From an uncultured Gammaproteobacteria bacterium (GTDB lineage: Bacteria; Patescibacteriota; Microgenomatia; UBA10105; UBA927), in assembly GCA_964367095.1 (NCBI GenBank), contig CAYIXE010000001.1:2803-66802 (forward strand): a DNA stretch of 64,000 nt, given 5' to 3'. Numbering within the stretch: position 1 is the first letter of the stretch; each line of letters begins with the position of its first letter. Both the position numbers and the translations under genes were made by a program. Shown here in pieces: positions 20,579-57,095 of the stretch. The notes under the pieces are model-generated. The model worked only from the letters and a program-made list of their open reading frames with translations, had not been told where the DNA came from and did not search any database.

Positions 20579-20684
20579 AGGATCATTACCTAAGATTTTA
20601 TCAACATTTAAACCTTCTGAAAGGGAGTACTTTCAAGTATACCAAAATGTCAGAAGCGAGACACAAATTGAGAGATAAGAGCGG

Positions 20685-20903: not shown

Positions 20904-21156
20904 ACTGAAACTTTGGGAATAATTTCTCCAATCGAAGATCAGGCAATATCTTCAAAGAATCTGCCGAAACTTTTTCATCTTCAAAATAAAGCTCAATGGC
21001 TTCATTTAAATTTATAAGTGCCTCACTCATAGATTTTCCTTGGCTGGCTATATCAATTTCCACGGCTTTGGCTACAAACCATGCACCTTCACGCCAAACG
21101 AGGGCATTCATTCCATAAGAGGCTATTTTTTGTTTTTTCTCTAATCGTTTCATCAT
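20896..21156 (-). CDS. hicB: HicB antitoxin (UPF0150 family)
   Basis: ALVWREGAWFVAKAVEIDIASQGKSMSEALINLNEAIELYFE, the HicB N-domain pattern. Overlaps hicA by 8 nt. The track start is TTG; the ATG at 21156 is preferred. Confidence 0.6.
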   Translation of the reverse strand: MMKRLEKKQKIASYGMNALVWREGAWFVAKAVEIDIASQGKSMSEALINLNEAIELYFEDEKVSADSLKILPDLRLEKLFPKFQYA

Positions 21157-21170
21157 ATAATCGTAGTATA

Positions 21171-22760
21171 TCACATCAAACAAGTCATTCTTCTTGCATA
21201 TTTACGATGAGCATAACGTACTTTGCGTATACCGAAAGCTAACAAAGAGAACAAACTGAGTAGTGATATCCCGTCGGCCAATAGCCGCAAGGGAGTCTCT
21301 TCAAATCTAACGATTAGTTGATGCTCTCCACTGGGCATATTCACATGGATAATACCGTCAGATTTATAGATGATAGTAGTTTCTTTACCGTCAACATACG
21401 CTTTCCACCCGGGAAAATAGAGTATATTCGCTGAGACAGTGCTTTCTGTTTTAGCATTGATAGTCATCTCATAGGAAAGTGGGGTCTCTTTGTACACATT
21501 TATAGCGGCATCCCCAGTGCTCGCTTGAAACCTTGTAGAAAACCGCTCTTTTTTCCATCCTGTCCATATTGTCGAGAAGCTATTACCTAAAGATGATGTG
21601 CCATCTGTAAATTCACGCCGAGAAAGGTAATGTGCATCATCCCGCTTTTCATACGTCACAGGCTTCATATATGAAAAACTTGCTATAAAAGCCAGAACGG
21701 TGAGCCCCACCATAATCCATCGTGGTGTCACAGTGGTAAGAAGCGCTCCAAGATACCCAGTGGCAATGGTGGTAACCACCAATAATCTCCATGGATACTG
21801 AATATTGCCCATAAGCGGCACGTATCGCCATAATGACAACGAGTACTCTGTCATACCAAAGATTGCAACCCCTACCACACAAAGAACGGGGAAAATTATC
21901 GCTCGTAATGCTTTCTTTCTCACTGCCGCAAAAAAACTGATACATACGATAAGAAGCGACACGATGCCAATTTGATACGACATCTCATCAGCGGTAATCC
22001 CTACACCCGAAAATCCCGTTCCCCACGATGGGAAGAGCAGCTGAAAAAGATCCGGAAAATGATCAGCATACGAAACACTATTTAAACCCACCATAAAACG
22101 GCTCTCAACGAGTGCCGGCAGCCAAAAATACGTTGCTAACCCAATTCCCGTAACAATTACTAAGATGTTGCCTCGTTTGCGATACCATGTATACAAAAAA
22201 ATAATTGGAATAAATATGAGCGCTGTAATATTGTGACTTACTATAATACCGGCTATCCCTATTGCTACACCAAAGGAAACACCATATTCTAACGCTGCAA
22301 GGGTTAACAACACAAAAGAAAGCGCCCACACCTCTCCTACTGATCCCCGTACATAAATATCCACAAACCAATACGGCACCATCGAACATATAATCGTACC
22401 TATAAGTGCTGGCTTTTTTCCAAACACTTTACGTAACCACAAAAAACACCAAAGTATAGCCGTAAGATACCCTGTAGCCAAGGTCAGCTTCACGCTGTCG
22501 ACAAACGTCGCGCCCAATGCATGGAATAAACTTCCTATATAGTTAGGGAATGGATAATGAAAAAGAAAAAGCGGTAAGCCGTATCCACTATTTAAATCAG
22601 GCGCCCATCGAGGAAATACATACCCTTGAGACAACATCTTATAAAACTGCCAGAAACGAATAATATGATACTCTCCGTCATGCGTCGGGATAAATCGAGC
22701 ACCAAAAAGCCATTGCGATGCAAATATTGCCGGAATAAGCGCGAGCAATAAAAATTTCAT
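21171..22760 (-). CDS. GT-C fold membrane glycosyltransferase, short YfhO-like paralog (1 of 5)
   Basis: About 12 TM. First-loop motif THDGEYHIIRFWQF...FPRWAPDLNSGYGLPLFLFHYP. C-terminal soluble domain with YFPGWKAYVDGKE...PSGEHQL. Confidence 0.5.
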   Translation of the reverse strand: MKFLLLALIPAIFASQWLFGARFIPTHDGEYHIIRFWQFYKMLSQGYVFPRWAPDLNSGYGLPLFLFHYPFPNYIGSLFHALGATFVDSVKLTLATGYLTAILWCFLWLRKVFGKKPALIGTIICSMVPYWFVDIYVRGSVGEVWALSFVLLTLAALEYGVSFGVAIGIAGIIVSHNITALIFIPIIFLYTWYRKRGNILVIVTGIGLATYFWLPALVESRFMVGLNSVSYADHFPDLFQLLFPSWGTGFSGVGITADEMSYQIGIVSLLIVCISFFAAVRKKALRAIIFPVLCVVGVAIFGMTEYSLSLWRYVPLMGNIQYPWRLLVVTTIATGYLGALLTTVTPRWIMVGLTVLAFIASFSYMKPVTYEKRDDAHYLSRREFTDGTSSLGNSFSTIWTGWKKERFSTRFQASTGDAAINVYKETPLSYEMTINAKTESTVSANILYFPGWKAYVDGKETTIIYKSDGIIHVNMPSGEHQLIVRFEETPLRLLADGISLLSLFSLLAFGIRKVRYAHRKYARRMTCLM

Positions 22761-23881
22761 CGTTTGTTCACAAAAATTTTATACCAAAAACTATAACAAG
22801 CCAACGGCATCCATGTCACAAAAAGCCGTATCATGGGTCCTGTGCCTCCATATTCTCTCGTCGCTATCCACGGCAAATACCGCAGCATTAATCCAAAGCT
22901 TAACATATACGCGGCTCCATGAATAAAGGATCTTTTGCCCATAGGCAACAGTGATACAAATACAAGAAACCATATGGCGTACCACGGATACATTTCTTCC
23001 CGAAGGGGGGTTAATAAAAAAACGCCAAACATACAAATTCCTACAAACAAAGCACGCTTTTCGTCTGATAAGTGACGAAAAAAAATAAAAAGCGGCAACA
23101 CCACTATAGTTGCTCCTTTCACCAATACCGAGGAGAGCATAAAACCCAATCCCATAATCCATACTGCTAACTGCGTATTACGCCAAAGATAAATTCCATA
23201 AAGAAGGAGAGCCATCATAAATGTATCATTATGGCCAGATACAAATGTCTCAATAATCACAAGCGGATTAAACGCAAAAAATAAGACGTTTCGCACGTTC
23301 TTTGTCATCCGATAAATAAGAACTCCTATCGCTACATACGAGCTGATTACCAACAATTTAAATGTGTACAACGCGACCAATACATTACCAAAAGAAAGTA
23401 CGTACGGAATCCACGTGGCAAGTATCCATATTGGCCCGTACAGTGCGAGTTTATTGGCGGCTCTGGTAAACCCAAGCATCGGCTCACCGAGAAATTCAGT
23501 CGGCATCACAAGATAGGGATTTTCGTGATAAAAAAATGCAACCTTTGCCGTAAGAATGTAGTTAAAAATGTCATGAGACAATGCAGGGTATGATAAGAAA
23601 AAGATACAACCTATCAATAACAAAAATTTCCAATATGTTTTTAGCGTTGGTAGCGTCTGTATCCTAATAATCAATGCATACAAGATAAACAAAATGAAAA
23701 CAAAAATTATATATATAATCGCGGCAACAATCGGCGTTTTATACACGATGTGAGTCAACGAATTGAGGACTGATAATGCCCACGGATGCGTCGAGATACT
23801 AAAATTTGGATCAACGAACCCAAATGAAAAAAGTGAAAATAAGAATCCGACTACTGCAAACCAAACAAGTATTGCTTTCAT
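22757..23881 (-). CDS. polytopic membrane protein, DUF2029/GT87-like putative GT-C glycosyltransferase
   Basis: SYPALSHDIFNYILTAKVAFFYHENPY motif, shared with the genes at 58659 and 31756. About 10 TM. ATGA overlap with the downstream gene. Confidence 0.4.
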   Translation of the reverse strand: MKAILVWFAVVGFLFSLFSFGFVDPNFSISTHPWALSVLNSLTHIVYKTPIVAAIIYIIFVFILFILYALIIRIQTLPTLKTYWKFLLLIGCIFFLSYPALSHDIFNYILTAKVAFFYHENPYLVMPTEFLGEPMLGFTRAANKLALYGPIWILATWIPYVLSFGNVLVALYTFKLLVISSYVAIGVLIYRMTKNVRNVLFFAFNPLVIIETFVSGHNDTFMMALLLYGIYLWRNTQLAVWIMGLGFMLSSVLVKGATIVVLPLFIFFRHLSDEKRALFVGICMFGVFLLTPLREEMYPWYAIWFLVFVSLLPMGKRSFIHGAAYMLSFGLMLRYLPWIATREYGGTGPMIRLFVTWMPLACYSFWYKIFVNKR

Positions 23882-23882
23882 A

Positions 23883-24416
23883 TTATGGATTCATACTATT
23901 CTCCCGTATATTTTGACGAAGCTTTATAGAAGCAGTCAACCGCTCATGAATGGATAACACCGTTGAGGAAATTTTTTCCGGTGTCCATATAAATTCTGGA
24001 GGCAATTCTCTATATAACTTTGTAAGTAACTTCTCGTGAGTGCTCATCTGTTCTTTTAATGATGCAACAACCAATGACATATTTTTCTTTTCCGCTTTTC
24101 CCGATTGAATACGTTCTGGTAGCTGAATAATTTCATTGTCAGAATGATTCAAGGCATCAAATGCCAATAAATATTGTTTGTACTCAAATAATATTTTCGC
24201 TTCAACCAGATATTTATCTGCCATGTTCATGATATGTTTTGCCTGCGCGATACTCCCAAAACTCCAATATCGTTTCACATGATCCAAGACGCGTGATACT
24301 CTATACATTTTATTTCCGGGCATAGCTGATGGATATGGGAGCACATATTCAGAAAATACAAGCGAAGGTGTGGAAAAAATTAAAGTCAAAAGAAAAAATG
24401 AAAGGAAATACTTCAT
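23883..24416 (-). CDS. secreted hypothetical protein with N-terminal signal peptide
   Basis: From the ATG at 24416: MKYFLSFFLLTLIFSTPSLVFSEY..., a signal-peptide-like N-terminus. No recognizable domain. The N-terminal extension in the track is probably untranslated. Confidence 0.45.
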   Translation of the reverse strand: MKYFLSFFLLTLIFSTPSLVFSEYVLPYPSAMPGNKMYRVSRVLDHVKRYWSFGSIAQAKHIMNMADKYLVEAKILFEYKQYLLAFDALNHSDNEIIQLPERIQSGKAEKKNMSLVVASLKEQMSTHEKLLTKLYRELPPEFIWTPEKISSTVLSIHERLTASIKLRQNIRENSMNP

Positions 24417-24417
24417 A

Positions 24418-25188
24418 TCACGATGCAGACATAAACTTTTTGTATGCCATAGGAAAATGGATGCTCGAGAATAGCGCAAACTGAAACCCCTGCCATCCGT
24501 CTACAAACCCCTTATGGCGAAGATAGATCGAAAAAAACGTACCAATCGGTTTGACCAAACAATACGATAAAAATAAATTAAACGTGGGTGTTTTATATAT
24601 CTTTCGCAAATCTAGAGCTGTAAGCGAGGTATACGTGTCTGCCTTTGCCCAGTATTCCTCAAGAGTATTGTTGGTGTAATGCAAAAGCGGTTCTTTAAGC
24701 GTTCCGATCTCTCCATCTATGACAATCTGTTCATGTACTGACTTGCAAGGTAACATGCCTTTACCCCTTTTAAACAATCGAACAAGATAGTCAGGATACT
24801 GTCCGCCTTTGGAAAGCCATTTGCCAATGAAGAAATTTTTGCGCGGCATTTGATACCCGGCATTTGTATTCTTTTTCTTTATTACTGACAGAATTTCGGC
24901 GCGAAGCTTTGGGCTTATGACTTCATCAGCGTCCAACTGCAATATCCAATCGCTCTTGCATGCATCTATGGCATACTGCTTATTGATATGAAACATCGCT
25001 GGATTATCTCGTTTAGAAATGTTCGCACCATACTTCTTTGCAATTTCAAGAGTTCCGTCAGTTGATCCGCCATCGACCAAGACTATTTCATCAACCCACG
25101 AAACTACAGAGGCTAAACATGCTTCTAATTTAATAACTTCGTTATATGTAGCAATTGCCACTGATAATGTTACCTTCTTTTTTGCCAT
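24418..25188 (-). CDS. GT2 glycosyltransferase (WaaE/KdtX-like)
   Basis: LSVAIATYNEVIKLEACL...IVLVDGGSTDGTLEIAKKYGA...LQLDADE. Confidence 0.7.
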   Translation of the reverse strand: MAKKKVTLSVAIATYNEVIKLEACLASVVSWVDEIVLVDGGSTDGTLEIAKKYGANISKRDNPAMFHINKQYAIDACKSDWILQLDADEVISPKLRAEILSVIKKKNTNAGYQMPRKNFFIGKWLSKGGQYPDYLVRLFKRGKGMLPCKSVHEQIVIDGEIGTLKEPLLHYTNNTLEEYWAKADTYTSLTALDLRKIYKTPTFNLFLSYCLVKPIGTFFSIYLRHKGFVDGWQGFQFALFSSIHFPMAYKKFMSAS

Positions 25189-26852
25189 AACCGCATTGTA
25201 ACAAGAAACCCCAAGAGTACAAAAATACCACCTATAGAAATCCAGTTAGAGAGTTTTCGAAACTTTGTATCGGAAAATATAATTTCAACATCATGCACTC
25301 CCTCGGGAACATCAAATGTTAACAGTCCTCGATAATTAGGGTTTTGAAATTCAATAGGAACGCGCGTTTTATCGACAAATACTTCCCAATTGGGAAAATA
25401 AAGCGTATTTTCGACAAATTTCATGGATGTTGATGAAGAAACAGCATATGAATGATATGTGCTATTTCTACGTCCGACTTCAATAGTCACATCCTTTCCA
25501 CTGATTAGCTCAATCGGCGCTTTGGCTCTCGTTTCCATAAAACGAATAGACCAAATCGGTGAACTTTCTCCTGTATCCGTAGTGCCGTTATAGACGCTGG
25601 TGAAATTACTGTCAGGCATCGATACATACTCTTTTGCGTGCCACATGGGAATGGTTCCGACAATTGCGATAGTACACAATAATCCCATCATCCATATCTT
25701 CTCTTTTTTAGAAACTATACTTATCCCAATAGCACCAACAATCGACGTTGCAAATACTGCAACACTCATCAGCCGCCAAGGAAATTGAAACTTTTGCAGA
25801 AGCGATATCGATTGCCAAACAGGCAACGCTGCATTGGTCATAAGGAAAAGTGAGAAAATAAATATGGCGACTGCCGCTATAGTGAATATCTGCATTTTTC
25901 GATTCGCTTTGGAAAACTTCACCAAGACCAATACCAACCCCAGAAGCTGTGCCACACCAAGGCTCTTACTAAACTCATTTCCACCCCCATAGTTCCACGC
26001 TGACCACAGAAACCACCGCAGCGGCACAAATCGAGTCTGAAAATCTCCGACGGTCACGATATCTCGAAGCGTATATTTCCCCTCAACAAATGCAGGTATC
26101 CAAAAAAATGCTGATAATATGAACCCAAGTGTAATACAGATAACGCTTGTGATGAAAAACCGACGTTTATCTTTTGACTCATAGACAAAAAGGTATAAAG
26201 CGTAGACACCTGCTATAGGCAAAAACATAATACTCAATGCATTATGTGAAAGAATTAATCCCGCCACACCCAACGCAACTATAACCTCCGCCTTTATTAT
26301 TCTCATATATCGATATATGAGAATTTTGGGAGTATCAAAAGATTGCTTAGCTAACATATAAAGTCCAAACATCACAAACGGTAAAAAAATAAAAGCCATA
26401 TGTTCCCCAATCGCCCCGCGAATATAGATATCGACAAACCGATAGGGAGCAAATCCATAAAGGATAGCCGCTGTAATCCCCGCTTCCATGCCCCATGCGG
26501 CATTAACCCACAGAAACATGGCAAACATGCTTGCAATAAACCCAAATGCAAAAACGAGCTTGACACTTTCTACCAATGAAAATCCAATCGTATGAAACGC
26601 TGACGCGATGTAGGATGGCAGCGGATACAAAAACATCATCACCGGATGCCCGTATCCCCAATTAAGGTTGCCAGCCCATCGCGGAACAAGGTTGCCTTCA
26701 GAAAGTGATTGATAGAAGTTGGCAATCCTTGCCACATGATCCTTACCATCATGCGTTATGGGCAATCCTGAGTTAAACAAGTCAAAAAGGGGCAAGATGG
26801 AAACAATAAGAAGTACGAACCAGATAACCAAGAGTGGAAGTAATCGCTTCAT
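25170..26852 (-). CDS. GT-C fold membrane glycosyltransferase, short YfhO-like paralog (2 of 5)
   Basis: ITHDGKDHVARIANFYQSL...VPRWAGNLNWGYGHPVMMFLYP. C-terminal YFPNWEVFVDKTRVPIEF...VPEGVHDVEIIF. Confidence 0.5.
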   Translation of the reverse strand: MKRLLPLLVIWFVLLIVSILPLFDLFNSGLPITHDGKDHVARIANFYQSLSEGNLVPRWAGNLNWGYGHPVMMFLYPLPSYIASAFHTIGFSLVESVKLVFAFGFIASMFAMFLWVNAAWGMEAGITAAILYGFAPYRFVDIYIRGAIGEHMAFIFLPFVMFGLYMLAKQSFDTPKILIYRYMRIIKAEVIVALGVAGLILSHNALSIMFLPIAGVYALYLFVYESKDKRRFFITSVICITLGFILSAFFWIPAFVEGKYTLRDIVTVGDFQTRFVPLRWFLWSAWNYGGGNEFSKSLGVAQLLGLVLVLVKFSKANRKMQIFTIAAVAIFIFSLFLMTNAALPVWQSISLLQKFQFPWRLMSVAVFATSIVGAIGISIVSKKEKIWMMGLLCTIAIVGTIPMWHAKEYVSMPDSNFTSVYNGTTDTGESSPIWSIRFMETRAKAPIELISGKDVTIEVGRRNSTYHSYAVSSSTSMKFVENTLYFPNWEVFVDKTRVPIEFQNPNYRGLLTFDVPEGVHDVEIIFSDTKFRKLSNWISIGGIFVLLGFLVTMRLWQKRR

Positions 26853-28492: not shown

Positions 28493-28497
28493 GCCTT

Positions 28498-30159: not shown

Positions 30160-30161
30160 GG

Positions 30162-33030: not shown

Positions 33031-33037
33031 AATAGGT

Positions 33038-34531
33038 CTATTGTACCCCAAACAACACGATAACATCATCAGTTTTTACTATGCGCGTCATATACTGGTC
33101 CAAATCAACTATAGGATATGTGCCTTTGCAATGATCTTCATAACAAAGTGTTTGTATCTTGCCTCCATGATCAACAAAGGGACAGACTCGATTCTCGCAT
33201 ACAAGCACAATTTGATTATCATTGCCTGTTATTTTCCCGGCAGTCGTTCCGCGTAAAGAGAAGCCTGCACGATAGTGAAGATCCGAAAACGACGGCGAGG
33301 AAACCAACCCAAAGCTAAACACGTTACTTCCCAATTCTTTTTTCACTATATCAATAACTTTCTCCACTTTTAAAATATCATTGCGAACAGGCGTTCTAGA
33401 AACCAATAAAACACTTTGATAAAAAGCGAGGGCAAGAAAAATCCCAAGTATGATAAAGACAATCGGTTTGATCCTTCGTATACGTACTACTTCCTCAATC
33501 CAAGTCCCAAACACTACATACGCCGCCGGAATGAGAAAATACAGGTAATGATCATACACAACCCCCCTATACAAAGACATCGCTCCCACTCCCCCAACTA
33601 TCCAAATAAGCAGAAGAAAAGAAAGATCGTTCTTTGAGACTATAAACCACAGCATCGTAAAGAAAATAATAATCCCGGCACCTAAAGGAAGCCCAAGTGA
33701 GAAAGGGAGCGTCTTTCCTGTAACCCGGCCTGCATAGTCAATGAAGTTGGCAAGTATTTGCCTTTTTCTGATTGGTGCAAGAGTGGGATATATAAATTGT
33801 GAAATAACACTTCCGATATTCTCAAAACCATGAGTGAATTCATACACAAGAAATGGAGACAGAACAAAAAGAAATATAATGATCCACGCGGCGGCAAGCT
33901 TTACCCATACTTCCCGACTTTCCTTGTCCTTGTAAAACAAAATAATAAATACTAATCCGGAGAGAGGAATAAATAATAAATTTGGATAATGAAGCTGTAC
34001 GAGTATTCCTGTAGACAGACCCATGAGAAGACTCCCGAGAAATTTTCTTTCTGTACGAAGGATCAAAGCTGCGGCATACACAAAAAGCATGACAAAAGAA
34101 GGAACGATATTTGGCTCCCAAAGAAATCGATCTTTAGCCACACCAAACGGGCTTAGTGCCCACAAGGCAGTAAGAAATACGGCAACTGGTGGAGTAAATA
34201 ATAGACGAAACGCCAACGCACTAAATAGTATTCCTAAACATCCGTAAAAAATTACGGCATATGCTCCCCAAACAAGTTGAAATCCTGACATAATAAGAAA
34301 TGGAGCGATCAAAAAATAATATGCTGGGCCTAAATGTTGACCGCTAAGAACTGTAGGTCCTAAAAGCGGCACTGTTTTTGATTCCCACGCGGTCAATACA
34401 TGAAGAAATGTTCTTCCTTGATCTCCTAAAAACTCTGTGCCTGCTGTAAGATTCCATAATCGCAGTGCCATAACGATGATAAAAAGTATTATAATAAAGA
34501 TAGTTTGTCCGCTCATCTGTCTTATGCGCAT
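33038..34531 (-). CDS. ArnT-like GT-C glycosyltransferase
   Basis: FLGDQGRTFLHVLTAWESKTVPLLGPTVLSGQHLGPAYYFLIAPF parallels FLGDEGRDML...LLGPTASVGGFFLGPIYYYFMLPF of the gene at 60574. D-E/Q first-loop motif. Polytopic. Confidence 0.45.
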   Translation of the reverse strand: MRIRQMSGQTIFIIILFIIVMALRLWNLTAGTEFLGDQGRTFLHVLTAWESKTVPLLGPTVLSGQHLGPAYYFLIAPFLIMSGFQLVWGAYAVIFYGCLGILFSALAFRLLFTPPVAVFLTALWALSPFGVAKDRFLWEPNIVPSFVMLFVYAAALILRTERKFLGSLLMGLSTGILVQLHYPNLLFIPLSGLVFIILFYKDKESREVWVKLAAAWIIIFLFVLSPFLVYEFTHGFENIGSVISQFIYPTLAPIRKRQILANFIDYAGRVTGKTLPFSLGLPLGAGIIIFFTMLWFIVSKNDLSFLLLIWIVGGVGAMSLYRGVVYDHYLYFLIPAAYVVFGTWIEEVVRIRRIKPIVFIILGIFLALAFYQSVLLVSRTPVRNDILKVEKVIDIVKKELGSNVFSFGLVSSPSFSDLHYRAGFSLRGTTAGKITGNDNQIVLVCENRVCPFVDHGGKIQTLCYEDHCKGTYPIVDLDQYMTRIVKTDDVIVLFGVQ

Positions 34532-36161
34532 GCACTCATTTAAGCACTATTTGGCTATACTGACAATCTCGACTCTTCCGTTTATATCCATGTTTCTCAC
34601 ATCCTCCATGCCGCACACGCATGACGGACCGGTACACCTTGCCAGACTCGCTTCCTATTATAAGGAGCTTTCTTACGGTCAAATTCCACCGCGTTGGGCA
34701 AGCGAATTAAATTTTGGAGTGGGTATGCCTCTTTTTAATTTCATATATCATCTTCCGTATCTTGTCGCCTCCATTCCCCTCTTTTTTTCATTTGGCCTTG
34801 TCGCATCGTTTAAGATATCGCTTCTTATAAGTTTTCTCCTCTCAGGAATTGGTATGTTTCTTTTCAGTCGTAAACTCTTTGGCGACATACCACGCGCATA
34901 CTTGGTGACTATTCTTTATCAATTTGCGCCATTTCATCTCGTCGAACTGGTCGTTCGTGGAAGTGTGGGTGAAGCATATACCTACTCGTTTCTACCATTC
35001 GTGCTTTATGGAATATTGTTAGTATCAGAAAATCCAAAACCACTCTATCTGCTAAACACAAGTATCGCTGTTTCGTTCTTAGTGCTTTCCCATAATGCAA
35101 TTAGTTTAGTAAGTTTCTCTGTCGCATTTCTTTTTGCTCTCTACTTTACACCGAAAACAAAAAATCGTCTCATCACACTTTTGCCGCTTATCATCGGACT
35201 GGGATTAACAACTTTCTACTGGTTACCAGCAGTTTTGGAGCGAAAATATACGTACGGCGATTTGTTTATGAAAGATATGTATCTATCACACTTTGCACCA
35301 ATTCAGAATTTTTTTATTCCTAATTTCACCAATTCCGCTAGGCTTCAAACCGGAGGCATTACCGTATATCTTGGACTCATTCAAAGCATCCTTCTCATTT
35401 CTTCTTTCTATCTTTTATTGGTCAAAAAAATCAAAAGTTCCAGTCTTTTATCAATAACATTTTTTAGTCTCATTCTTATCATGATGAGCTTTTTTTTCAT
35501 GCAGCCGATTTCCTCTCCTATTTGGGAACGGGTAAAAACCTTACGCATGTTTCAGTTTCCGTGGAGACTTCTCTCCATTGTAGGATTAGGTACAGCACTT
35601 CTTGGCGCCATAATAGTTTTCAAAAATAAAAAGCTCAACTTGATAATTGTTTCTTTCTTTTCCGTCGTTTCAGTCATTTCAACAATTGTATTTTGGAATC
35701 CGCCATTAGGCTACGACAAAATAATAGAAACTGATTATTGGAACTATCCTTTAAACACAACGTATTTTGGTGAGACCGATCTTATATGGTCTGACGGACC
35801 GGCGTCATCATACCCGATTGCCCCATTTGAAATCATCGAGGGTGAGGGTGAGATCACCAATCCATACAAAAAAAGCATCAAACACTCATTTACCATAAAC
35901 GCACAGACGCCGGTACGTATGATAGACAACACGCAATACTTCCCGGGTTGGCGTGTCTTTGTAGATTCTGTAAAAACACCTATTGAATTTCAAGACCAAA
36001 ACCATAGAGGCAGGATCACATTTAACGTCCCTGAAGGATTACACAAAGTCGAGGTTATTTTTGGCAATTCTCCAATAAGAACGATTGGCAATACGGCAAG
36101 CATCCTTACTCTCCTCTCGTCGACAATTGTATATATAATTTTTCAACGTAAACGATTATGA
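34530..36161 (+). CDS. GT-C fold membrane glycosyltransferase, short YfhO-like paralog (3 of 5)
   Basis: MPHTHDGPVHLARLASYYKEL...PPRWASELNFGVGMPLFNFIYHLP. C-terminal YFPGWRVFVDSVKTPIEF...VPEGLHKVEVIF. Start taken at an internal ATG (34524 or 34530); the track start at 34437 overlaps the divergent gene. Confidence 0.5.
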   Translation: MHSFKHYLAILTISTLPFISMFLTSSMPHTHDGPVHLARLASYYKELSYGQIPPRWASELNFGVGMPLFNFIYHLPYLVASIPLFFSFGLVASFKISLLISFLLSGIGMFLFSRKLFGDIPRAYLVTILYQFAPFHLVELVVRGSVGEAYTYSFLPFVLYGILLVSENPKPLYLLNTSIAVSFLVLSHNAISLVSFSVAFLFALYFTPKTKNRLITLLPLIIGLGLTTFYWLPAVLERKYTYGDLFMKDMYLSHFAPIQNFFIPNFTNSARLQTGGITVYLGLIQSILLISSFYLLLVKKIKSSSLLSITFFSLILIMMSFFFMQPISSPIWERVKTLRMFQFPWRLLSIVGLGTALLGAIIVFKNKKLNLIIVSFFSVVSVISTIVFWNPPLGYDKIIETDYWNYPLNTTYFGETDLIWSDGPASSYPIAPFEIIEGEGEITNPYKKSIKHSFTINAQTPVRMIDNTQYFPGWRVFVDSVKTPIEFQDQNHRGRITFNVPEGLHKVEVIFGNSPIRTIGNTASILTLLSSTIVYIIFQRKRL

Positions 36162-40122: not shown

Positions 40123-40125
40123 TTA

Positions 40126-41796: not shown

Positions 41797-41810
41797 ATTA
41801 CGTTTCACGA

Positions 41811-43600: not shown

Positions 43601-43609
43601 AAACGTATA

Positions 43610-46827: not shown

Positions 46828-49129
46828 ATTTTTTTACAAACAACGATCCTAATGCTATCGTCAATAATGACACAAAGCCCACGATAATTCCCCATCGAAA
46901 ACTTTTCGGTTGATACCGAAAGATGACCGTGTGTTCGCCTGAAGGGACTGCGACTGCCCGAAACGTATAGTCAGCACGTTGAATCGGTGTACTTTTGCCA
47001 TCAACCGTTGCTTTCCACCCGGTGTCATACGTATCAGACAAAAATAAAAGCTTTGCGCCATCGCTTTTTGTCTTTATGACTACCTCTTCGGGATCATACG
47101 ATATGATTGTTGCCTCACCTGTGCCAATCTCTGGCTCGATAATGGGTTTGTCTTCCAGTAATATAGTATCGCGTCCGTCTATAGTATCTGAAAACATCAT
47201 CTGCAATAATTCCAATTTATCGCGTACTATCTTATAGCTTGAAGCTAAGAACGTCCTAGGATACGCTTTTTTATTTTCAAATAACTCGTAGGTCTCATCT
47301 TTAAAGATAGACTGATATTGCGGATACTCCCAAAACGGATACGCCCATGCAAACCTGCCGTCACTGAATTTATGAAGATAGAATCGTACACCCAGTAACT
47401 CAAGAGTGCTTTGCGTATAGGGCCCGTGTTTATCGAGGATAACTACCGACCGCGAAGGTACATTCATTTTGCCATTTGAGAGAAACGATACGAATTCCCC
47501 GTATCGTCTTTTATACATGGCATCATATCCTTCCAAAGAAGGAACGTGATACATGCCGCCTAGCTCATTGCCATAATTACCAACGACTCTTGAGGCCGAA
47601 GTTTTAAGCATTTCATCAAGCTTTTTGGTGATTGCCATAGATGGATACAAAAATTCTTTCTCTTCAAACGGCATCCATTTAGCGGCAAATCTGACCACAT
47701 CAAACATCGTTATACATAAAAGAATCCATAAAAGCCATACTCTTTTTCTTTTATCGATAACCCGACCGATTAAAAATACTGCGCTCGAGATCAAAAGGAT
47801 AACGCTTGGTAGTAGTGAATTTCGTACCGCTATAGTAAGTTTATCGGTGAGTAGCGGATGAAAAAAATAAAGAATAATCCAAAACGATGTTAAAAATACC
47901 CCAAAACCCAATACAAAGAATACGACCGTACGCTTCTTTTTTTCTTCCCACAAAAACGATAACGCGTCTGCGCCATATGCTGATAGGACTGCTAATGCAA
48001 AGCTCACCAAAAGAATAATCCGTGAAGCGGAACTAGTCGATAATACAGGTATATGAGCTCTATACATAAGGTCGGTAAGTAATGTGGGGGTTGCCAACAA
48101 TAACGAAAACGAAAAAAGACCGGTAAAAAACCATTTACTGGACTTTTTTACGGTCAATGCGATACATGAGAGCAAAAGAGGCACAACACCTATAAATCCC
48201 GCCCACTCTGCGTAATGCCCGAACCAATCATTACGGGTGACCGGATTACCATAAAAATCAGGTGCAAAAAAAGTAATCAAGTAGGACCACGGAATAATTT
48301 CCCCTTTAGAAAACGTTGTACTTCGAACTGATTGAATATATGCGTCATAGGTGATAAAAAGCTGAGGACTTGCCAAAAGTACTCCGAGGACCACAAATAC
48401 TGCAAGATAGAAAGCACGTGCATACCTTCTTGTCACGATGCCGCGATAAAGAAGGTAAAAAATAGTACCCATCAAGACATATATGCTCGTTTGGAAATGT
48501 CCGGAGACCAAAGAAAACCAAATAGCCAAAGACATGAGGGGAAACGCCCACCATTTTTTATCGTTTATCACTTTATTGACACTATAAAAACAAAGCGGGA
48601 GAAAAATGGCAGCAAAGCCGAGTGTTTGATATGCCATCCATGTGACGAGAAATCCGCAAAACATAAACGCCAATGATCCGATGATCCGTCCCTCCCTGGA
48701 TATCTTCTCGCTTGTTAAAAACAAATACATAAATAATCCAGCCAGAAGCGGCTGAAGCAGTACGCTGATACTCCATGCTATGGGCTGCGAAAGAATAAAA
48801 TATAATAAGTTTATCGGAGAAAACACCGCGGTTTGATAGTTTGCGGCATGTACAGTACCTGAAAAACTATACGGGTTCCATAAAGGAACCTTGCCTCGCT
48901 TCCAACTCTCAATAGTAATATTTTTCCATGGATAAATTTGGGTAATCACATCGGGCATTGAGCCGCTTTTGACCGGCATACCATATTGAGTACTCCACGG
49001 AGCAAATGTCGTCACAAGGTAACGAGTCGGAAACGGAAGTAGCCCTTTCACAAAAAAGGGCGATGAAAATATACCCCATGCCGCGATGATAATCAGTACT
49101 CCCCAATGTCTGATAAACATTTTTTTCAT
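46808..49129 (-). CDS. YfhO-family GT-C glycosyltransferase (long form, 773 aa)
   Basis: LPFPTRYLVTTFAPWSTQ...YPWKNITIESWKRGKVPLWNPYSFSGTVHAANYQTAVFSP. C-terminal YDTGWKATVDGKSTPIQR...VPSGEHTVIFRYQP. Confidence 0.55.
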   Translation of the reverse strand: MKKMFIRHWGVLIIIAAWGIFSSPFFVKGLLPFPTRYLVTTFAPWSTQYGMPVKSGSMPDVITQIYPWKNITIESWKRGKVPLWNPYSFSGTVHAANYQTAVFSPINLLYFILSQPIAWSISVLLQPLLAGLFMYLFLTSEKISREGRIIGSLAFMFCGFLVTWMAYQTLGFAAIFLPLCFYSVNKVINDKKWWAFPLMSLAIWFSLVSGHFQTSIYVLMGTIFYLLYRGIVTRRYARAFYLAVFVVLGVLLASPQLFITYDAYIQSVRSTTFSKGEIIPWSYLITFFAPDFYGNPVTRNDWFGHYAEWAGFIGVVPLLLSCIALTVKKSSKWFFTGLFSFSLLLATPTLLTDLMYRAHIPVLSTSSASRIILLVSFALAVLSAYGADALSFLWEEKKKRTVVFFVLGFGVFLTSFWIILYFFHPLLTDKLTIAVRNSLLPSVILLISSAVFLIGRVIDKRKRVWLLWILLCITMFDVVRFAAKWMPFEEKEFLYPSMAITKKLDEMLKTSASRVVGNYGNELGGMYHVPSLEGYDAMYKRRYGEFVSFLSNGKMNVPSRSVVILDKHGPYTQSTLELLGVRFYLHKFSDGRFAWAYPFWEYPQYQSIFKDETYELFENKKAYPRTFLASSYKIVRDKLELLQMMFSDTIDGRDTILLEDKPIIEPEIGTGEATIISYDPEEVVIKTKSDGAKLLFLSDTYDTGWKATVDGKSTPIQRADYTFRAVAVPSGEHTVIFRYQPKSFRWGIIVGFVSLLTIALGSLFVKKYENRLL

Positions 49130-49134
49130 ATTTG

Positions 49135-51744: not shown

Positions 51745-51745
51745 A

Positions 51746-53188
51746 TTAGCTTCTCAATGATTTTATAAAGCCTAGAACGCGACTTTTATCTGTAAGATAT
51801 ATACACCCCGTGTAAAGTATAACACCCGAAAGTCCGACAAAAAAAAGTGTTACGTATGTACTCGGAACAATTTTTAGAATGGTCACATACCACAGCGCTT
51901 GTATCAAAGATGATACGACTGCACTAGAGATATTTCTTATAAATGTAAACGGCACGATCTTTTGCATCTCTTTTACAACAATCCCTATTGTAAATGTGAT
52001 AAGAAAAATAGAAAATGCGACGCCTTGGAATCCAAAAAAGTGAATAAATATCACCGTAACGACCCATGTAAGGGTAGTCCACATCACCATCAAAAGAAGT
52101 GTTGTTTTAATCTTTCCTATTGCATTGAGTGCATTGGTAAGAGGCGTTGTCAGTCCTGCAATCGCCGCGGCTCCGACGAAAAAATAAAATGACAAAAGTG
52201 CTGGTTCCCATTTCGTATACTTAGGTATCAAATGCACAAGCGGTCGGACGAAAAATAGAAGTGCTATCGAGATAGGAAAAATGGTGAGAGATAATCCGTA
52301 AATAGTTTTCTCAAGTGCTTTCCCCAAAAGTATTTTGTCATGCTGGATACGGGAAAATGCCGGAAAGGTGACGCGTATGACGCTATCCATGATAAGGCGC
52401 AAAGGAACCTCTGCCCACTTTTTCGCCCACCCCAAATATCCGACTTCAGAAAAAGGGAGCGCCTTCCCCAAAAAGATAATCAATAAATCATCTTTCACCA
52501 CAGCTAAAAATGAATTCATCTGAAACGGTATACCGAACTTTAAAAGTTTATGCGCCACACTTCTTGATATCCCAAAGCTAGGCATCCAAGGCCAAACGAT
52601 ATATGCCGTTATCACACCTAATATACCCCGACATAATACGGCCCATGAAAAGCTTGCCACACCAAGCCCCTTCCATGCCAAAAATACTGCAACGACATAA
52701 AATCCAAGTGTCTCGACAATCGTGGGGATCACGAGCCGATTAAAAGCCAAGGACCGCTCCATAAGTATTGATGGAATAGTTTTTAACGATGATAAGAAAA
52801 ATGACACGACGAGAGCGCGAAACAGCCACACGCCTGATGCATCCAGCATATAAAAATCGCCTATCTTATATGAAAAAAATAAGGCAATGGTTACAGCAGA
52901 ACCTACCAGAAGCTGCTGGATGGTAAAGGTCGTCTGAAGATCTTCTGTAGTAAGATCATCCTTTTTTTGCACGAGGGCGGCGGCCAATCCTATATCTGAA
53001 AAGTATCCCAAAAACGAAATAACAGCAGACACGACATAGTACACACCAAATATCGAAGGAGTCAAAAGAAGTGTCAAAAGAAACGTCGCAACAAATCCTA
53101 CAATCTGCAACGTAAAAGTTCTTGCGGTAAGAGCCACCATCCCTTTTACTGACTTTGATTTAATGTCTTTTATATCAGTGTCTGTCAT
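51746..53188 (-). CDS. Wzx-type oligosaccharide flippase (MOP/PST family)
   Basis: 480 aa, about 12-14 TM. N-terminus SVKGMVALTARTFTLQIVGFVATFLLTLLLTPSIFGVYYVVSAVISFLGYFSDIGLAAALVQ. Confidence 0.7.
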   Translation of the reverse strand: MTDTDIKDIKSKSVKGMVALTARTFTLQIVGFVATFLLTLLLTPSIFGVYYVVSAVISFLGYFSDIGLAAALVQKKDDLTTEDLQTTFTIQQLLVGSAVTIALFFSYKIGDFYMLDASGVWLFRALVVSFFLSSLKTIPSILMERSLAFNRLVIPTIVETLGFYVVAVFLAWKGLGVASFSWAVLCRGILGVITAYIVWPWMPSFGISRSVAHKLLKFGIPFQMNSFLAVVKDDLLIIFLGKALPFSEVGYLGWAKKWAEVPLRLIMDSVIRVTFPAFSRIQHDKILLGKALEKTIYGLSLTIFPISIALLFFVRPLVHLIPKYTKWEPALLSFYFFVGAAAIAGLTTPLTNALNAIGKIKTTLLLMVMWTTLTWVVTVIFIHFFGFQGVAFSIFLITFTIGIVVKEMQKIVPFTFIRNISSAVVSSLIQALWYVTILKIVPSTYVTLFFVGLSGVILYTGCIYLTDKSRVLGFIKSLRS

Positions 53189-53915
53189 ACTGTAAATTTT
53201 TCCAGGGACGCGTCATAAACAGACGGTACAAACCCTTAAGATCGCCGAATGCAGTTTTTAGAACTCGTACTGTGGACCCAGGATTATCTACCCACCGAAC
53301 CGGTTCTTCATAAATGCGTATCCCGCTTTTTTCGGCAAGAACAAGTAATTCTGTATCAAAAAACCACTCGTTATCTCTAATTCTTGGAAGAATTGTGCGG
53401 GCAATCGTCGAGGACATGGCTTTAAATCCACACTGTGCATCCGAAAAATTAACAAAAAAGAATAGTTTAATGAGGATAATATACATTTTTGATGTAATAG
53501 TTCGAAGCGCTGATCTGCCGTACACAAGTGATCCAGCCGCATTTCGCGTCCCGATTGAGATGTCGTATCCTCGGGAAAGCGAATGAATCAGAGCTGGTAA
53601 ATGCCTAAGATCGCTTGATAAATCAATATCCATATAACAAACAAATCGTGCCGTGCTTTGAAGCCAGGCTTTTTTCACTGCTCGGCCTCTTCCTTTTTCT
53701 TTAAGGTGAATGCTTGAGACGATGGCGTATTTTTTTGTCATCGCATTGGCTATTTCATACGTTTTATCGGTTGATGCATTATCAGCAATTACGATTGTTG
53801 TTTTATACTCTTTAAGATGTGTGGTAACAAAAAAGACAAGCGTCTCCACACTTGAAGAAAGATCCTCTTCTTCGTTGTACACCGGCAATATTATGTCAAG
53901 CGTTATTTTTTTCAT
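53175..53915 (-). CDS. GT2 polyprenyl-phosphate sugar synthase-like (DPM1-like)
   Basis: LDIILPVYNEEEDL...IVIADNASTDKTYEIA...KGRGRAVKKAW. Confidence 0.65.
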   Translation of the reverse strand: MKKITLDIILPVYNEEEDLSSSVETLVFFVTTHLKEYKTTIVIADNASTDKTYEIANAMTKKYAIVSSIHLKEKGRGRAVKKAWLQSTARFVCYMDIDLSSDLRHLPALIHSLSRGYDISIGTRNAAGSLVYGRSALRTITSKMYIILIKLFFFVNFSDAQCGFKAMSSTIARTILPRIRDNEWFFDTELLVLAEKSGIRIYEEPVRWVDNPGSTVRVLKTAFGDLKGLYRLFMTRPWKNLQYDRH

Positions 53916-55560
53916 ATCGAATATAAAAAACTATACAAAACACGCCGGTTAAAAAGCTTAGTATATTTGCTGCCCGCCGCACAGGCGTATCAGATAGACG
54001 TAATTCTACTACACTCTCGCCTTCTAATACTTGAAGGATTGGAAATCCATCCGCAATCGTTGCCTTTATTTCTTTTCCATTGACACTATAATGCCATCCC
54101 GGAAACCACGCCTTCAATATGCGCACAGGCTGAGCAGAAGAAGAAACGATTCTTGCTTTCAAATAGTTTGATTTTTGGACAATGCTTACACTCTTAATCA
54201 AACCCTCAGATTCAAAAATAGAATCATTCTTAAGTGAAGAACTCTTAGGGCGGATAAGATCATAAGGCAAATACTCATCAGATATTTTGGAGACGCGCAC
54301 CTTTAATTCGTTGACTGATTCATAATCGTCAATCGGTCTATACGTTTTTTGCTGCGGCCGAAATTCCTGCTGGTTTACGATGAGAACAAGTATGATAATA
54401 CTGACGGCAAAGACTCGCCTCATCAAAGATCTACTTTGTGTAAATGCCGTCGCAGCAACTACCGACAGAGCAAACGAAGCACTGCTTAAAAACCGCCACG
54501 GATATTGAATATACGAAAAACCCGGAATATACTCCCAAACACTAGCTGATATTGGAAGCATAAAAAATACACTAAGAAAAAATATAATAAACCCAAAAAG
54601 AAGAATCCGACGGGTATTTGATAGAGTAAATCGATGCACAAAGAAAAGAAACATAGCATAGAGAAACAGTGCCAAATGAATAGTTCCAAGCTTAAATGAC
54701 ATGCCGTCAATACATCCTGAAGTGGAACCCCCAAAGCCCCATGGGGAATTGATAAATTGTGATACACACACAAAATGCGATCGAAAATCAGCAGAGCCGC
54801 CTGCCTGGGCTGCAACATTTGTATACCCCATCTCAAAAAGTGCCGGCAGCCAAAAAAACGCACTGAGTAATAATCCAATACCAACCTCTAAAAGATAAAT
54901 AGAAAGCACTGAATCAACGTTCTTCTTTCGAAATTTTGAAACACCCGCATACACTCCAATCCATAACACATAAAATATCACCCAAACATATCCTGATATC
55001 GTGTGGGATAAAATAGTAAGTGCGATGCCAAGAGAACCGACAAACACAGTCTTAGGCTTCACCTTTGACAATAAAGGTGCCGCAATACCATAAAAAAGAA
55101 GAGGCAAAAATGCCGTCGCGTAGAGCTCTCCTACGGCCCCTCGTACATACAATTGCACCGCATGGTACGGCGCGTACATAAAAAGAATCGCGGAGACAGC
55201 CGCCGCCATAACACCAAGAAACTGTTCAAGTACTAAAAATGCCAATAAAGGAGCCAAAATCATGCCAAGTCCCATCATGATCTTTGTAGCAAACATCGCA
55301 GGAATCCCTAAATTTGTTAACGCACCGCCTATATAGTATGGAAGCGGTCCATAAAAATTAAATATCGGATATCCATAGCCGTATCCTAAATCACTCACCC
55401 AACGCACGGGAAACTGTCCATCAGAAAGTGATCGTGCCATAGATACAACTCTGCCAACTTGGGTGTCATCATGCATCGGGAAATACGATGGCCCCAAAAG
55501 AGACAAGATGCCAAATGTAGAAAGGAGAATAACTGCAAGAAGGACAATTATTTTTTTCAT
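53896..55560 (-). CDS. GT-C fold membrane glycosyltransferase, short YfhO-like paralog (4 of 5)
   Basis: FPMHDDTQVGRVVSMARSL...FPVRWVSDLGYGYGYPIFNFYGPLPYY. C-terminal WFPGWHYSVNGKEI...LEGESVVELR. Confidence 0.5.
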   Translation of the reverse strand: MKKIIVLLAVILLSTFGILSLLGPSYFPMHDDTQVGRVVSMARSLSDGQFPVRWVSDLGYGYGYPIFNFYGPLPYYIGGALTNLGIPAMFATKIMMGLGMILAPLLAFLVLEQFLGVMAAAVSAILFMYAPYHAVQLYVRGAVGELYATAFLPLLFYGIAAPLLSKVKPKTVFVGSLGIALTILSHTISGYVWVIFYVLWIGVYAGVSKFRKKNVDSVLSIYLLEVGIGLLLSAFFWLPALFEMGYTNVAAQAGGSADFRSHFVCVSQFINSPWGFGGSTSGCIDGMSFKLGTIHLALFLYAMFLFFVHRFTLSNTRRILLFGFIIFFLSVFFMLPISASVWEYIPGFSYIQYPWRFLSSASFALSVVAATAFTQSRSLMRRVFAVSIIILVLIVNQQEFRPQQKTYRPIDDYESVNELKVRVSKISDEYLPYDLIRPKSSSLKNDSIFESEGLIKSVSIVQKSNYLKARIVSSSAQPVRILKAWFPGWHYSVNGKEIKATIADGFPILQVLEGESVVELRLSDTPVRRAANILSFLTGVFCIVFYIRYEKNNA

Positions 55561-57095
55561 GGTTTAAATTTCATTCGTATCATCCACTCGATATATAAAA
55601 TAATAAACCCCAATGAAATGATATCTGCCACCAACCGGAATCCCGTCTCACGAAATGATGCCTCCAACCTGTGTTTGCCTTTAGGGACTGTAATATGCAT
55701 TACTCCGTATGGATTTTTATACTCGATAGGGGTAAGTACGCCATTTAATGCAACTCCCCATCCTGGATAATAAATTGTATTTATAGAAATCAGACTTTCA
55801 GCCTTGGCATCTATAATGCCGTCTATCCGTTGTACAGTATCCTGACTGGAAAAAAATTCTGCATCTCCTGACAGGACTTCTACTTTTTGGGCAGCACGGA
55901 TGGTTTGTATCGTTTGTACCCACCGAGGCATATATTCATTCTTCACGGTAGTCGTCGCTTCGTTTGTACTGTAATACCCTTCACCATGATCGACATAAAC
56001 GATTGCACTCTGCGAAACTAAAACAATATATACGAGTGAACACGTCAGAATAAATACAACGATACCTTTTATTTTGTTGGGTACAAATGACAGCATGGAA
56101 GACACCGTAAATGCACCAATAAAAGACGCCAATGATAAGAATCGATAGGGAAATTGGACATAAAAGCTAAGTTGTGGAATCAATTTCCAGACAAACATAC
56201 TTATGGGTAACGCCAGCGCCGCACTGCAAAGTGTTACTACAGCAGATGTTTTTTCAAAAACAGTAATTTTATGCTTTGCAAAAAATAATAGAACAAGTGA
56301 TGAGATAAAACCTATTCCTAAAAGCGGCCACTGATCAAGCCGTATGAAATACGATAACGAATCAGCGACACGTATGCTGTCAAACAACACAAATCGTCTT
56401 TCGTAAAGCGCCGGCAGCCAAAAAAATGTCGCCATCCCTATACCAATACCTATACTTTTTATATAAAGAAAACGCTTGCTTTGCATGAATGAAAACAAAA
56501 GAAAAACACCCAAAAATAAAAGTGCTAACGAATTATGACTGACGAGCAAAACAGCAGTTGCGACAGGGATAACCCATAAAACATTTGAAACAATACCGTA
56601 AAACAGAATACTTGCCGGAAGAAACGCAAACAGCTCTCCCACCGACCCTCTTTTAAATAAATCAAATACGACATACGGACTTAATACAAACGATATGGCG
56701 CCTACTGTTGCTTCAAGCAAATGATATTTTTTCCTAAGCGTCAAATATAATACTACTGCCGACCCGACGACAGATATCGAAAGCACGATCTTTATAACAT
56801 CGACATACGAAAATCCAAAAAGTCGAACGAATGATCCAACATACAAAAATCCAGGATATAAAAAATTTGCGACCGGATACCCGTAATTATGGTATAAACG
56901 GCCCAAGAATCGTACAGGAAATTGACCCTCTGCCAAACTTTGATAAAACGCCGAGAGACGAATGATCATCCAGTCTCCATCATCCGTGACAAAAAATCCG
57001 CGGTAAAACAACGGCCACAATAAAAGTATCGATGCTAATAATATGGCGCCAATTCCAAGCCATTCGTATGGAGTCTTGTGTGGTTTTATGGTCAT
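55557..57095 (-). CDS. GT-C fold membrane glycosyltransferase, short YfhO-like paralog (5 of 5)
   Basis: FFVTDDGDWMIIRLSAFYQSL...FPVRFLGRLYHNYGYPVANFLYP. C-terminal YYPGWGVALNGVLTPIEY...VPKGKHRLEASF. Confidence 0.5.
   Translation of the reverse strand: MTIKPHKTPYEWLGIGAILLASILLLWPLFYRGFFVTDDGDWMIIRLSAFYQSLAEGQFPVRFLGRLYHNYGYPVANFLYPGFLYVGSFVRLFGFSYVDVIKIVLSISVVGSAVVLYLTLRKKYHLLEATVGAISFVLSPYVVFDLFKRGSVGELFAFLPASILFYGIVSNVLWVIPVATAVLLVSHNSLALLFLGVFLLFSFMQSKRFLYIKSIGIGIGMATFFWLPALYERRFVLFDSIRVADSLSYFIRLDQWPLLGIGFISSLVLLFFAKHKITVFEKTSAVVTLCSAALALPISMFVWKLIPQLSFYVQFPYRFLSLASFIGAFTVSSMLSFVPNKIKGIVVFILTCSLVYIVLVSQSAIVYVDHGEGYYSTNEATTTVKNEYMPRWVQTIQTIRAAQKVEVLSGDAEFFSSQDTVQRIDGIIDAKAESLISINTIYYPGWGVALNGVLTPIEYKNPYGVMHITVPKGKHRLEASFRETGFRLVADIISLGFIILYIEWMIRMKFKP

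Follow-up and report, generated by a model that had tools for sequence, protein, structure and literature searches.

We report on a 64,000-nucleotide stretch of contig CAYIXE010000001.1 (assembly GCA_964367095.1; the whole stretch is hereafter called the window), in which genes for five short membrane proteins that resemble YfhO lie within 36 kb together with three genes for long YfhO proteins. The G+C content of the window is ~39-41% and nearly all of it is made up of genes for glycan assembly. Between positions 21171 and 62235 (41 kb), 19 of approximately 33 genes encode proteins of the glycosyltransferase (GT) fold class GT-C, i.e. five short YfhO-like, three long YfhO, eight PMT_2-like and three GT87/MptA-B-like proteins, with GT2, GT4, Wzx and methyltransferase genes interspersed among them. 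This inventory is based on open reading frames (ORFs) of at least 80 amino acids (aa). Classification with profile hidden Markov models (HMMs) returned exactly five short and three long members in the window; they are named here S or L followed by their first window coordinate (Table 1). The paralogs are mutually 28-32% identical, and sampled family members have lengths of 510-614 aa (median 541) for the short and 721-801 aa (median 773) for the long family.

Homology and fold of the short and long proteins

Deep alignments were generated for the short (55 sequences) and the long family (53 sequences), and profile-profile comparison of the two gave a probability of 99.6% (E 2.4e-24) for a colinear match of positions 1-528 of the short to positions 8-779 of the long family, with a gap of ~180-230 residues in the short family about opposite residues 416-595 of L46808. 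A core His (H176 within SHN in the short family, H211 within SGH in the long), a C-terminal Trp (W452/W705) and a C-terminal Gly (G478/G731) are invariant in both families. Homology of short and long proteins over their full length is supported by these sequence profiles.

AlphaFold2 models of S21171 (predicted local distance difference test score 92.1, predicted template modelling score 0.92) and L46808 (90.4 and 0.91) place the difference between the two forms. In the S21171 model a loop, 8-9 strands (411-486) and a long terminal helix (490-528) come after the last core helix (347-365). In the L46808 model the helix that aligns with this core helix (399-423) leads into extra helices (428-454 and 460-485), an alpha/beta domain (~499-660), strands (671-739) and a terminal helix (742-771). 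The long proteins thus have ~2 extra membrane helices, an alpha/beta domain of ~175 residues before the beta-sandwich and a first loop that is ~30 residues longer; because the extra helices number two, the topology is unchanged. These helix counts are approximate and were read from the secondary structure of the models, as hydropathy merged neighbouring helices and was unreliable. The short proteins model as multi-helix membrane proteins of the GT-C fold, and not in some other fold, which the sequence-only reading of this DNA had named as an outcome that would refute it. The best structural matches of the short model are enzymes, and the long model matches AftD (19.2), PglB (17.7) and STT3B (17.0) with ~100 more residues aligned. 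Identity to solved GT-C enzymes, i.e. yeast Pmt4 (9e61), AglB (3waj), ArnT (5f15), AftA (8if8), AftD (6wbx), PglB (5ogl) and STT3B (6s7t), is 8-14%, and the soluble domains of these enzymes differ (MIR, the C-terminal domain of OST, and the carbohydrate-binding modules of AftD).

The three long proteins are ordinary YfhO members: PF09586 scores are 64, 45.4 and 103.9 bits (E 1e-12 to 1e-30), all above the Pfam gathering cut-off (28.5 bits for PF09586; 26.4 bits for PF10131, see below). The NCBIfam models PgfM1/PgfM2 match two of them, at the C-terminus only, and the NCBIfam scan of the short proteins gave no match.

A C-terminal module common to all eight proteins

As the sequence-only reading had described, the signature Y..GW.a.vDG…G.H is present near the C-terminus of all eight proteins. 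The proteins do not end with this soluble domain, as had been stated, since a hydrophobic helix and then a basic tail come after it in seven of the eight. Only L43610 stops directly after the beta-sandwich ('...KLSFRPL') and lacks the terminal membrane helix of the other seven; a database relative of 721 aa (P0159) suggests that this end is a conserved variant rather than a truncation.

Alignment of the 93-aa C-terminal segments of the short and the long group with hhalign gave a probability of 97.9% (E 5e-13). These segments had been cut around the motif, and the comparison was therefore repeated unanchored on every six-frame ORF of 100 aa or more in the window (88 in all). After its own group, the HMM of the long group found the five short proteins next (E 5e-10 to 0.013; noise from E 0.77) and that of the short group the three long proteins (E 6e-10 to 5e-5; noise from E 0.02), while the 11 other GT-C proteins of like composition in the window matched neither HMM. 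On its own, the Pfam YfhO model matches the C-terminus of S21171 (profile positions 757-824, E 3e-6), and positions 757-835 of that model correspond to the shared module. That the likeness is due to chance or to the composition of beta-rich hydrophobic sequence, the two groups sharing just the general GT-C fold, has a negligible probability: the eight modules have only two invariant columns (W and G) and pairwise identities of 16-35%, but the hhalign and the unanchored window-wide searches, on which we rejected a compositional artefact, the Pfam match and the same strand order followed by a terminal helix in both models argue against it.

The same signature is found in YfhO proteins from Bacillus thuringiensis, Bacteroides finegoldii and Microvirga plasmids (IPYDKGWKATVDGKE...GTHTIELKY; VYYPGWQATIDGQP...GEHTIEMWF; IFYPGWEVWVDGER), the C-termini of which are recognised by the short-family HMM with 24-39 bits. 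With a profile of the eight modules, an exhaustive database search gave 48,659 cluster representatives at a cut-off of E <= 1e-3 and 7,484 when the cut-off was set to E <= 1e-10. Where a match is full-length, no more than ~40 residues usually separate the module from the end of the protein, or from that of a unit within a fusion. Its carriers are ~540, 770-810 or 840-1000 residues long, some 600-700, and fusions reach 1,500-3,300 residues; in nine scanned examples it is joined to cores of the YfhO or the PF10131 type. The module is thus an ordinary, widespread end of the YfhO family. We also observed giant proteins with 2-4 copies of the module, e.g. P0361 (1670 aa), P0362 (3329 aa) and P0363-P0368, which apparently are end-to-end fusions of YfhO-like units; P0361 in addition has a DUF3105 domain and a core of the PF10131 type.

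An aspartate and its spacing in the first loop

The first-loop stretches of the five short proteins, taken from their translations, are THDGEYHIIRFWQFYKMLSQGYVFPRWAPDLNSGYGLP; THDGKDHVARIANFYQSLSEGNLVPRWAGNLNWGYGHP; THDGPVHLARLASYYKELSYGQIPPRWASELNFGVGMP; MHDDTQVGRVVSMARSLSDGQFPVRWVSDLGYGYGYP; and TDDGDWMIIRLSAFYQSLAEGQFPVRFLGRLYHNYGYP. Apart from the deviations given next, all five have [T/M][HD]D[GD]…G…P.RW…G.G.P. The fuller pattern proposed earlier, [T/M]HD[G/D]..H..R...Y..L..G..P.RW...LN.GYG.P, holds as a consensus and not as a strict pattern: S53896 has MHDD and no second His, S55557 has TDDG, no second His and RF for RW, and 'LN.GYG' is variable.

The motif had been presented as a feature of the short proteins; the spacing at its centre is common to the long ones too. 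In the short family (D28...P50-R-W52-A-P54...S58-G59) an invariant Asp is followed 22 residues on by P-x-W, and in the long family D60, P82, W84, N85, P86 and G91 are invariant over the 53 members. We fetched 80 related loci and used the two family profiles to class every ORF of 300 residues or more in them. Within the first 200 residues, 142 of 151 short-family ORFs and all five long-family ORFs have Asp-x21-P-x-W; of the 787 other ORFs of these loci none has it there, and over their 331,416 residues as a whole it appears twice. The Microvirga YfhO has the identical spacing (D50...PLWNP), and the Bacteroides YfhO has HD36 with Trp at +24.

Mapping of the motif onto the models, suggested as a check on it, puts the Asp at the start of the amphipathic first-loop helix in both forms, with D28 at the N-terminal end of helix 29-44 (S21171) and D60 at the start of helix 59-77 (L46808). 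A conserved acidic residue in the first extracytoplasmic loop is a trait of GT-C enzymes, and it is present as D28 in the 55 short and as D60 in the 53 long sequences. We take D28 and D60 to be equivalent, judging from the spacing pattern and from the secondary structure of each of the two models by itself, and they may be the counterpart of the first-loop catalytic acid in other GT-C enzymes.

Family placement and predicted function

The Pfam models divide the short proteins. Against PF09586, S53896 scores 42.7 bits, above the cut-off, S21171 scores 26.3 bits, just below it and for the C-terminal module only, and the other three give no match. Against PF10131, S34530 (40.3 bits) and S53896 (50.4 bits) are above the cut-off over profile positions 1-324 of 621, with no match for the other three. 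The short membrane core scores as well against PF10131 as against PF09586. PF10131 is treated as a GT-C relative of unknown function (PMC7801869). The cores of S34530, S53896 and 31 of the 55 short-family members pass over its positions 1 to ~320, whereas positions ~325-621 are unmatched and the short C-terminus matches YfhO instead; the family name 'PTPS_related' is irrelevant to the likely function. On canonical YfhO proteins the long-family HMM gave 81-194 bits, covering most of the Microvirga protein as one stretch, most of the Bacteroides protein, and two separate parts of the Bacillus protein, and the short-family HMM found the C-terminal module only.

What the short proteins have in common with YfhO is full-length profile homology, the C-terminal signature with the terminal helix, Asp-x21-P-x-W and a likely pairing with GT2 lipid-phosphate sugar synthases. 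They differ in that they are ~230 residues shorter and lack ~2 membrane helices and the alpha/beta domain, four of the five are below the Pfam YfhO threshold, and all named sources sampled are metagenome-assembled genomes (MAGs) of Patescibacteria. YfhO proteins have ~13 membrane helices and a very large extracytoplasmic loop between the last two, of 389 aa in YfhO of B. subtilis (PMC5836110). The corresponding loop is ~255-260 aa in the long proteins here, in keeping with this large-loop trait, and ~125 aa (S21171, 366-489) in the short ones, which have ~2 fewer helices and do not show it. Taken together, our data suggest that the five short proteins, as a compact subfamily, probably belong to YfhO among the GT-C membrane glycosyltransferases and act as the transferases outlined below.

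In Firmicutes, a GT2 protein makes an undecaprenyl-phosphate sugar, GtrA flips it and a YfhO or PMT_2 protein transfers the sugar outside the membrane (PMC8035078, PMC5836110); the acceptors known for YfhO are lipoteichoic acid, wall teichoic acid and disordered, Ser/Thr-rich regions of proteins (PMC8035078, PMC5836110, PMC12041528). The arrangement GT2-GtrA-YfhO on a B. thuringiensis plasmid served as the reference. Candidate parts of such a three-component system in the window are a GT2 gene of the DPMS/ArnC/GtrB-like type beside S53896, a GT2-GtrA fusion (62157-63269) and a flippase of the Wzx type (51746-53188). The GT2 protein beside S53896 matches the dolichol-phosphate mannose synthase of Pyrococcus (5mlz, E 5.5e-15) and also ArnC and GtrB, and it is likely the donor-making partner; the GT2 protein adjoining S25170 is of another type (GmaR/SunS-like).

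By analogy with these systems, the short proteins likely take sugars from polyprenyl-phosphate carriers and pass them on to acceptors at the surface. GT2 proteins of the dolichol-phosphate-mannose-synthase type would load the sugar onto polyprenyl phosphate in the cytoplasm, the lipid-linked sugar would be flipped across the membrane and each GT-C paralog would then, on the outer side of the membrane, attach the sugar to a polymer or protein of the surface. The first-loop Asp may act as the catalytic base, and the beta-sandwich, which the final helix ties back to the membrane, may contribute to acceptor binding. What most likely distinguishes the paralogs is the sugar, the linkage or the acceptor.

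Several points weigh against this placement and function. Only one of the five short proteins is above the PF09586 cut-off, two are above that of PF10131, and two (S25170 and S55557) match nothing; 31 of the 55 family members match PF10131 and 28 match PF09586 (at E <= 1e-3). The module of S53896 is the weakest towards the long group (8-13 bits). A sequence search of the PDB with both family profiles gave no relative, and thus no solved YfhO for comparison. With respect to the first loop, hhalign of the N-terminal sub-alignments preferred another, gapped alignment (39.6% probability), and in an ungapped profile score over 45 columns the Asp-to-Asp alignment did not stand out, 306 of 500 shuffles doing as well; since neither approach fixed the alignment, we do not claim alignment-based homology for this loop. 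As to function, no acceptor was identified in the window, and GtrA was found as the fusion at 62157-63269 only, stand-alone GtrA genes not having been searched for and small ORFs not scanned.

Alternative readings of the short form

The sequence-only reading held that the short proteins are a trimmed YfhO lineage that kept its C-terminal module. Their homology to the long YfhO proteins and the module itself agree with this; the direction of the change is unproven. With the long-family profile, the region that the long proteins have in addition can be aligned in the YfhO proteins of Microvirga and Bacteroides and in Patescibacteria, although not in the one Bacillus YfhO tested (B. thuringiensis). 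The named sources of the short family are all Patescibacteria MAGs, although many of its records are mislabelled. Because the extra region occurs in YfhO of Pseudomonadota, Bacteroidota and Patescibacteria and the named sources of the short family are Patescibacteria only, we lean slightly, on the basis of this distribution, towards an origin of the short form by loss.

The reverse is a possible, though less favoured, course of events: the short form would be ancestral, from a PF10131 lineage or a common PF10131/YfhO ancestor, and long YfhO would have gained two helices and the alpha/beta domain. It draws on the core, where PF10131 scores at least as well as PF09586 (in S53896 as well as in the family counts given above, with S34530 matching PF10131 only), on the name '6-pyruvoyl-tetrahydropterin synthase-related protein' that NCBI gives to one ortholog, and on proteins of an intermediate 600-700 aa that bear the same C-terminal module on either type of core. 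Loss is nevertheless the more economical explanation of the extra region in three groups of YfhO, the B. thuringiensis protein notwithstanding, and at the C-terminus the short proteins follow the YfhO model and not PF10131 positions 325-621.

A wider and rather doubtful proposal is that the short proteins are a distinct, Patescibacteria-specific family that merits a definition of its own and which, together with the 14 other GT-C genes of the 41 kb, would use lipid-phosphate monosaccharides to assemble a complex surface glycan, all of it outside the membrane, in the manner of mycobacterial arabinogalactan and lipoarabinomannan. If true, this would be a large investment for a genome of ~1 Mb and might relate to attachment to host cells. 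Our search of the literature on GT-C proteins, YfhO or glycosyltransferases of Patescibacteria, the candidate phyla radiation or Gottesmanbacteria gave nothing relevant.

It is improbable that the short proteins are accessory membrane proteins with a GT-C shape and without transferase activity, e.g. in scaffolding, lipid-carrier recycling or flipping. Activity has been demonstrated for no member, and Rismondo et al. considered that YfhO might flip the lipid-linked sugar as well (PMC5836110). However, the first-loop Asp, R35, R51, R138, E143 and H176 are invariant over the 55 members, as in an active site, the closest structural matches are enzymes, and genes for lipid-phosphate sugar synthases adjoin.

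Distribution and age of the copies

A scan of one genome per species gave at least 542 loci with a relative, and two database searches placed at least 902 and at least 1,970 clusters above their thresholds for the short family. The nearest relatives are in MAGs of Patescibacteria, chiefly Gottesmanbacteria, Woesebacteria and Levybacteria, and an identical copy of the S21171 protein is recorded from Hainich groundwater metagenomes (well H52) and in the MAG GCA_964358845.1. Loci with 40-91% identity and the same synteny were seen in numerous MAG records that bear the title 'uncultured Gammaproteobacteria bacterium' (among them L005 and L008-L011), and the Gammaproteobacteria label of such third-party assemblies looks wrong. 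Public names of the short family are inconsistent (YfhO family, 6-pyruvoyl-tetrahydropterin synthase-related, hypothetical).

Orthologs of S21171, S25170 and S53896 in the three Patescibacteria groups have median identities of 45-49%. The best 120 database matches of S53896 are all its own orthologs (39-92% identity, median 45%), and scores to the nearest window paralog are ~2x those to the next. In most of the 80 fetched loci the S21171 ortholog is accompanied by a second short paralog, which lies on its strand and ~4 kb upstream, and 62 of these upstream copies best match S25170. The spacing between the two in the relatives fits the block seen in the window, i.e. S25170, GT2, a DUF5667 protein, an MptA/B-like GT-C protein and S21171. 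This block is ancient, since the arrangement of S25170 and S21171 recurs in most of the related loci sampled. Short and long members seem to occur together on several long contigs of relatives.

Old orthogroups that run across Microgenomates therefore account for at least three of the five short paralogs, and what had been taken for an unusual expansion in one locus is a standing feature of Microgenomates, not a local event. That the eight copies arose by a recent, lineage-specific tandem expansion in this genome is very unlikely. Eight homologs lie in 36 kb, S53896 and S55557 are adjacent and overlap by 4 nucleotides, and orthologs were sampled for S21171, S25170 and S53896 and none for S34530 or S55557; against this, the paralogs are far apart in sequence, three of them have orthologs at the identities given above, and the S25170...S21171 arrangement recurs. 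For these three copies recent tandem duplication was rejected on account of the old orthologs and the recurring synteny.

Gene neighbourhood

The coordinates of the genes and of the parts of the proteins discussed are collected in Table 1. The density of GT-C genes is very high for a Patescibacteria genome of ~1 Mb.

The start codons of the divergent genes 33038-34531 (minus strand) and S34530 overlap in one CATG (34529-34532), with no room for promoters between the two, and inspection by eye gave no obvious ribosome-binding site upstream of 34530. The ORF of S34530 opens at an upstream GTG (34437), which would give 574 aa, and a start downstream of 34530 would delete the first membrane helix. 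The true starts of both genes may differ from those called.

Between S25170 and S21171 are the MptA/B-like GT-C gene 22757-23881 and the DUF5667 gene 23883-24479. The DUF5667 protein has a hydrophobic segment at its N-terminus, and it might be exported and hence be an acceptor or an accessory factor. Two small ORFs (20327-21183) lie immediately downstream of S21171. In sibling contigs the same position holds genes for a DUF7387-like protein and a HicA toxin (locus L001, 3605-5137), which look like a toxin-antitoxin pair, and these contigs go on with a Fic/MerR gene where the window has the GT4 gene 19189-20355; strains thus differ at this edge of the locus. A gene for an AAA_14/DUF4143 ATPase (17759-19120), between a small ORF (17073-17762) and the GT4 gene, is situated within the glycosylation locus and looks unconnected with glycan synthesis.

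Table 1. Window coordinates of the YfhO-like genes, of parts of their products and of other genes of the locus
Feature	Position	Strand	Remarks
S21171	21171-22760	-	529 aa; compact YfhO-like GT-C protein
S25170	25170-26852	-	560 aa; 537 bits against short-family HMM; no Pfam family at threshold
S34530	34530-36161	+	543 aa from ATG 34530; PF10131 E 1.9e-10, residues 75-390
S53896	53896-55560	-	554 aa; PF10131 E 1.7e-13 and PF09586 E 3.4e-11, both above threshold
S55557	55557-57095	-	512 aa; 442 bits against short-family HMM; no Pfam match
L36158	36158-38488	+	776 aa; YfhO family; PF09586 E 1.2e-17; orthologs called 'YfhO family protein' by NCBI
L43610	43610-45775	-	721 aa; YfhO family; PF09586 E 5.2e-12, C-terminal part only
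L46808	46808-49129	-	773 aa; YfhO family
C-terminal beta-sandwich, S21171 (residues 403-495)	21276-21554	-
C-terminal beta-sandwich, S25170	25257-25535	-
C-terminal beta-sandwich, S34530	35802-36080	+
C-terminal beta-sandwich, S53896	53965-54243	-
C-terminal beta-sandwich, S55557	55629-55907	-
C-terminal beta-sandwich, L36158	38138-38416	+
C-terminal beta-sandwich, L43610	43613-43873	-
C-terminal beta-sandwich, L46808	46886-47164	-
First-loop motif, S21171 (T26-P63)	22572-22685	-	D28, R35, G46, R51, G61 and P63 invariant over 55 members
First-loop motif, S25170	26643-26756	-
First-loop motif, S34530	34617-34730	+
First-loop motif, S53896	55366-55476	-
First-loop motif, S55557	56874-56987	-	variant TDDG...PVRF
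First-loop stretch, L46808 (M58-V93)	48851-48958	-	D60...P82-L-W84-N-P86...S90-G91
First-loop stretch, L36158	36344-36451	+
First-loop stretch, L43610	45482-45589	-
GT2, polyprenyl-phosphate sugar synthase type	53175-53915	-	PF00535; directly downstream of S53896 and overlapping it
GT2 fused to GtrA/DPMS-type membrane domain	62157-63269	-	PF00535 E 2.8e-28 and PF04138 E 1.4e-19
Wzx-type polysaccharide flippase	51746-53188	-	PF13440 E 9e-47; in minus-strand gene string with S53896 and GT2 53175-53915
PMT_2-like genes	first coordinates 26849, 28498, 30162, 38416, 40126, 57092, 60574		assigned by Pfam
PMT_2-like gene	33038		assigned as paralog of 60574 (E 3e-28)
GT87/MptA-B-like genes	first coordinates 22757, 31756, 58659

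Concluding remarks

In their architecture the short proteins represent a compact version of an enzyme family that is already known, and they are abundant, uncharacterised and poorly named. The result is solid but fairly ordinary, and the current understanding of these enzymes is not overturned by it. Placing the family as compact YfhO-like GT-C enzymes would mend the annotation across Microgenomates genomes. The short form amounts to a naturally occurring minimal YfhO. It suggests that the core design can do without the alpha/beta domain and two membrane helices, and it directs attention to Asp-x21-P-x-W, the core His and the C-terminal beta-sandwich as the key parts; in the large loop of YfhO, Rismondo et al. 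found no conserved catalytic residues (PMC5836110). Finally, the presence of 19 GT-C genes in 41 kb suggests that surface glycans matter greatly to these ultra-small bacteria.

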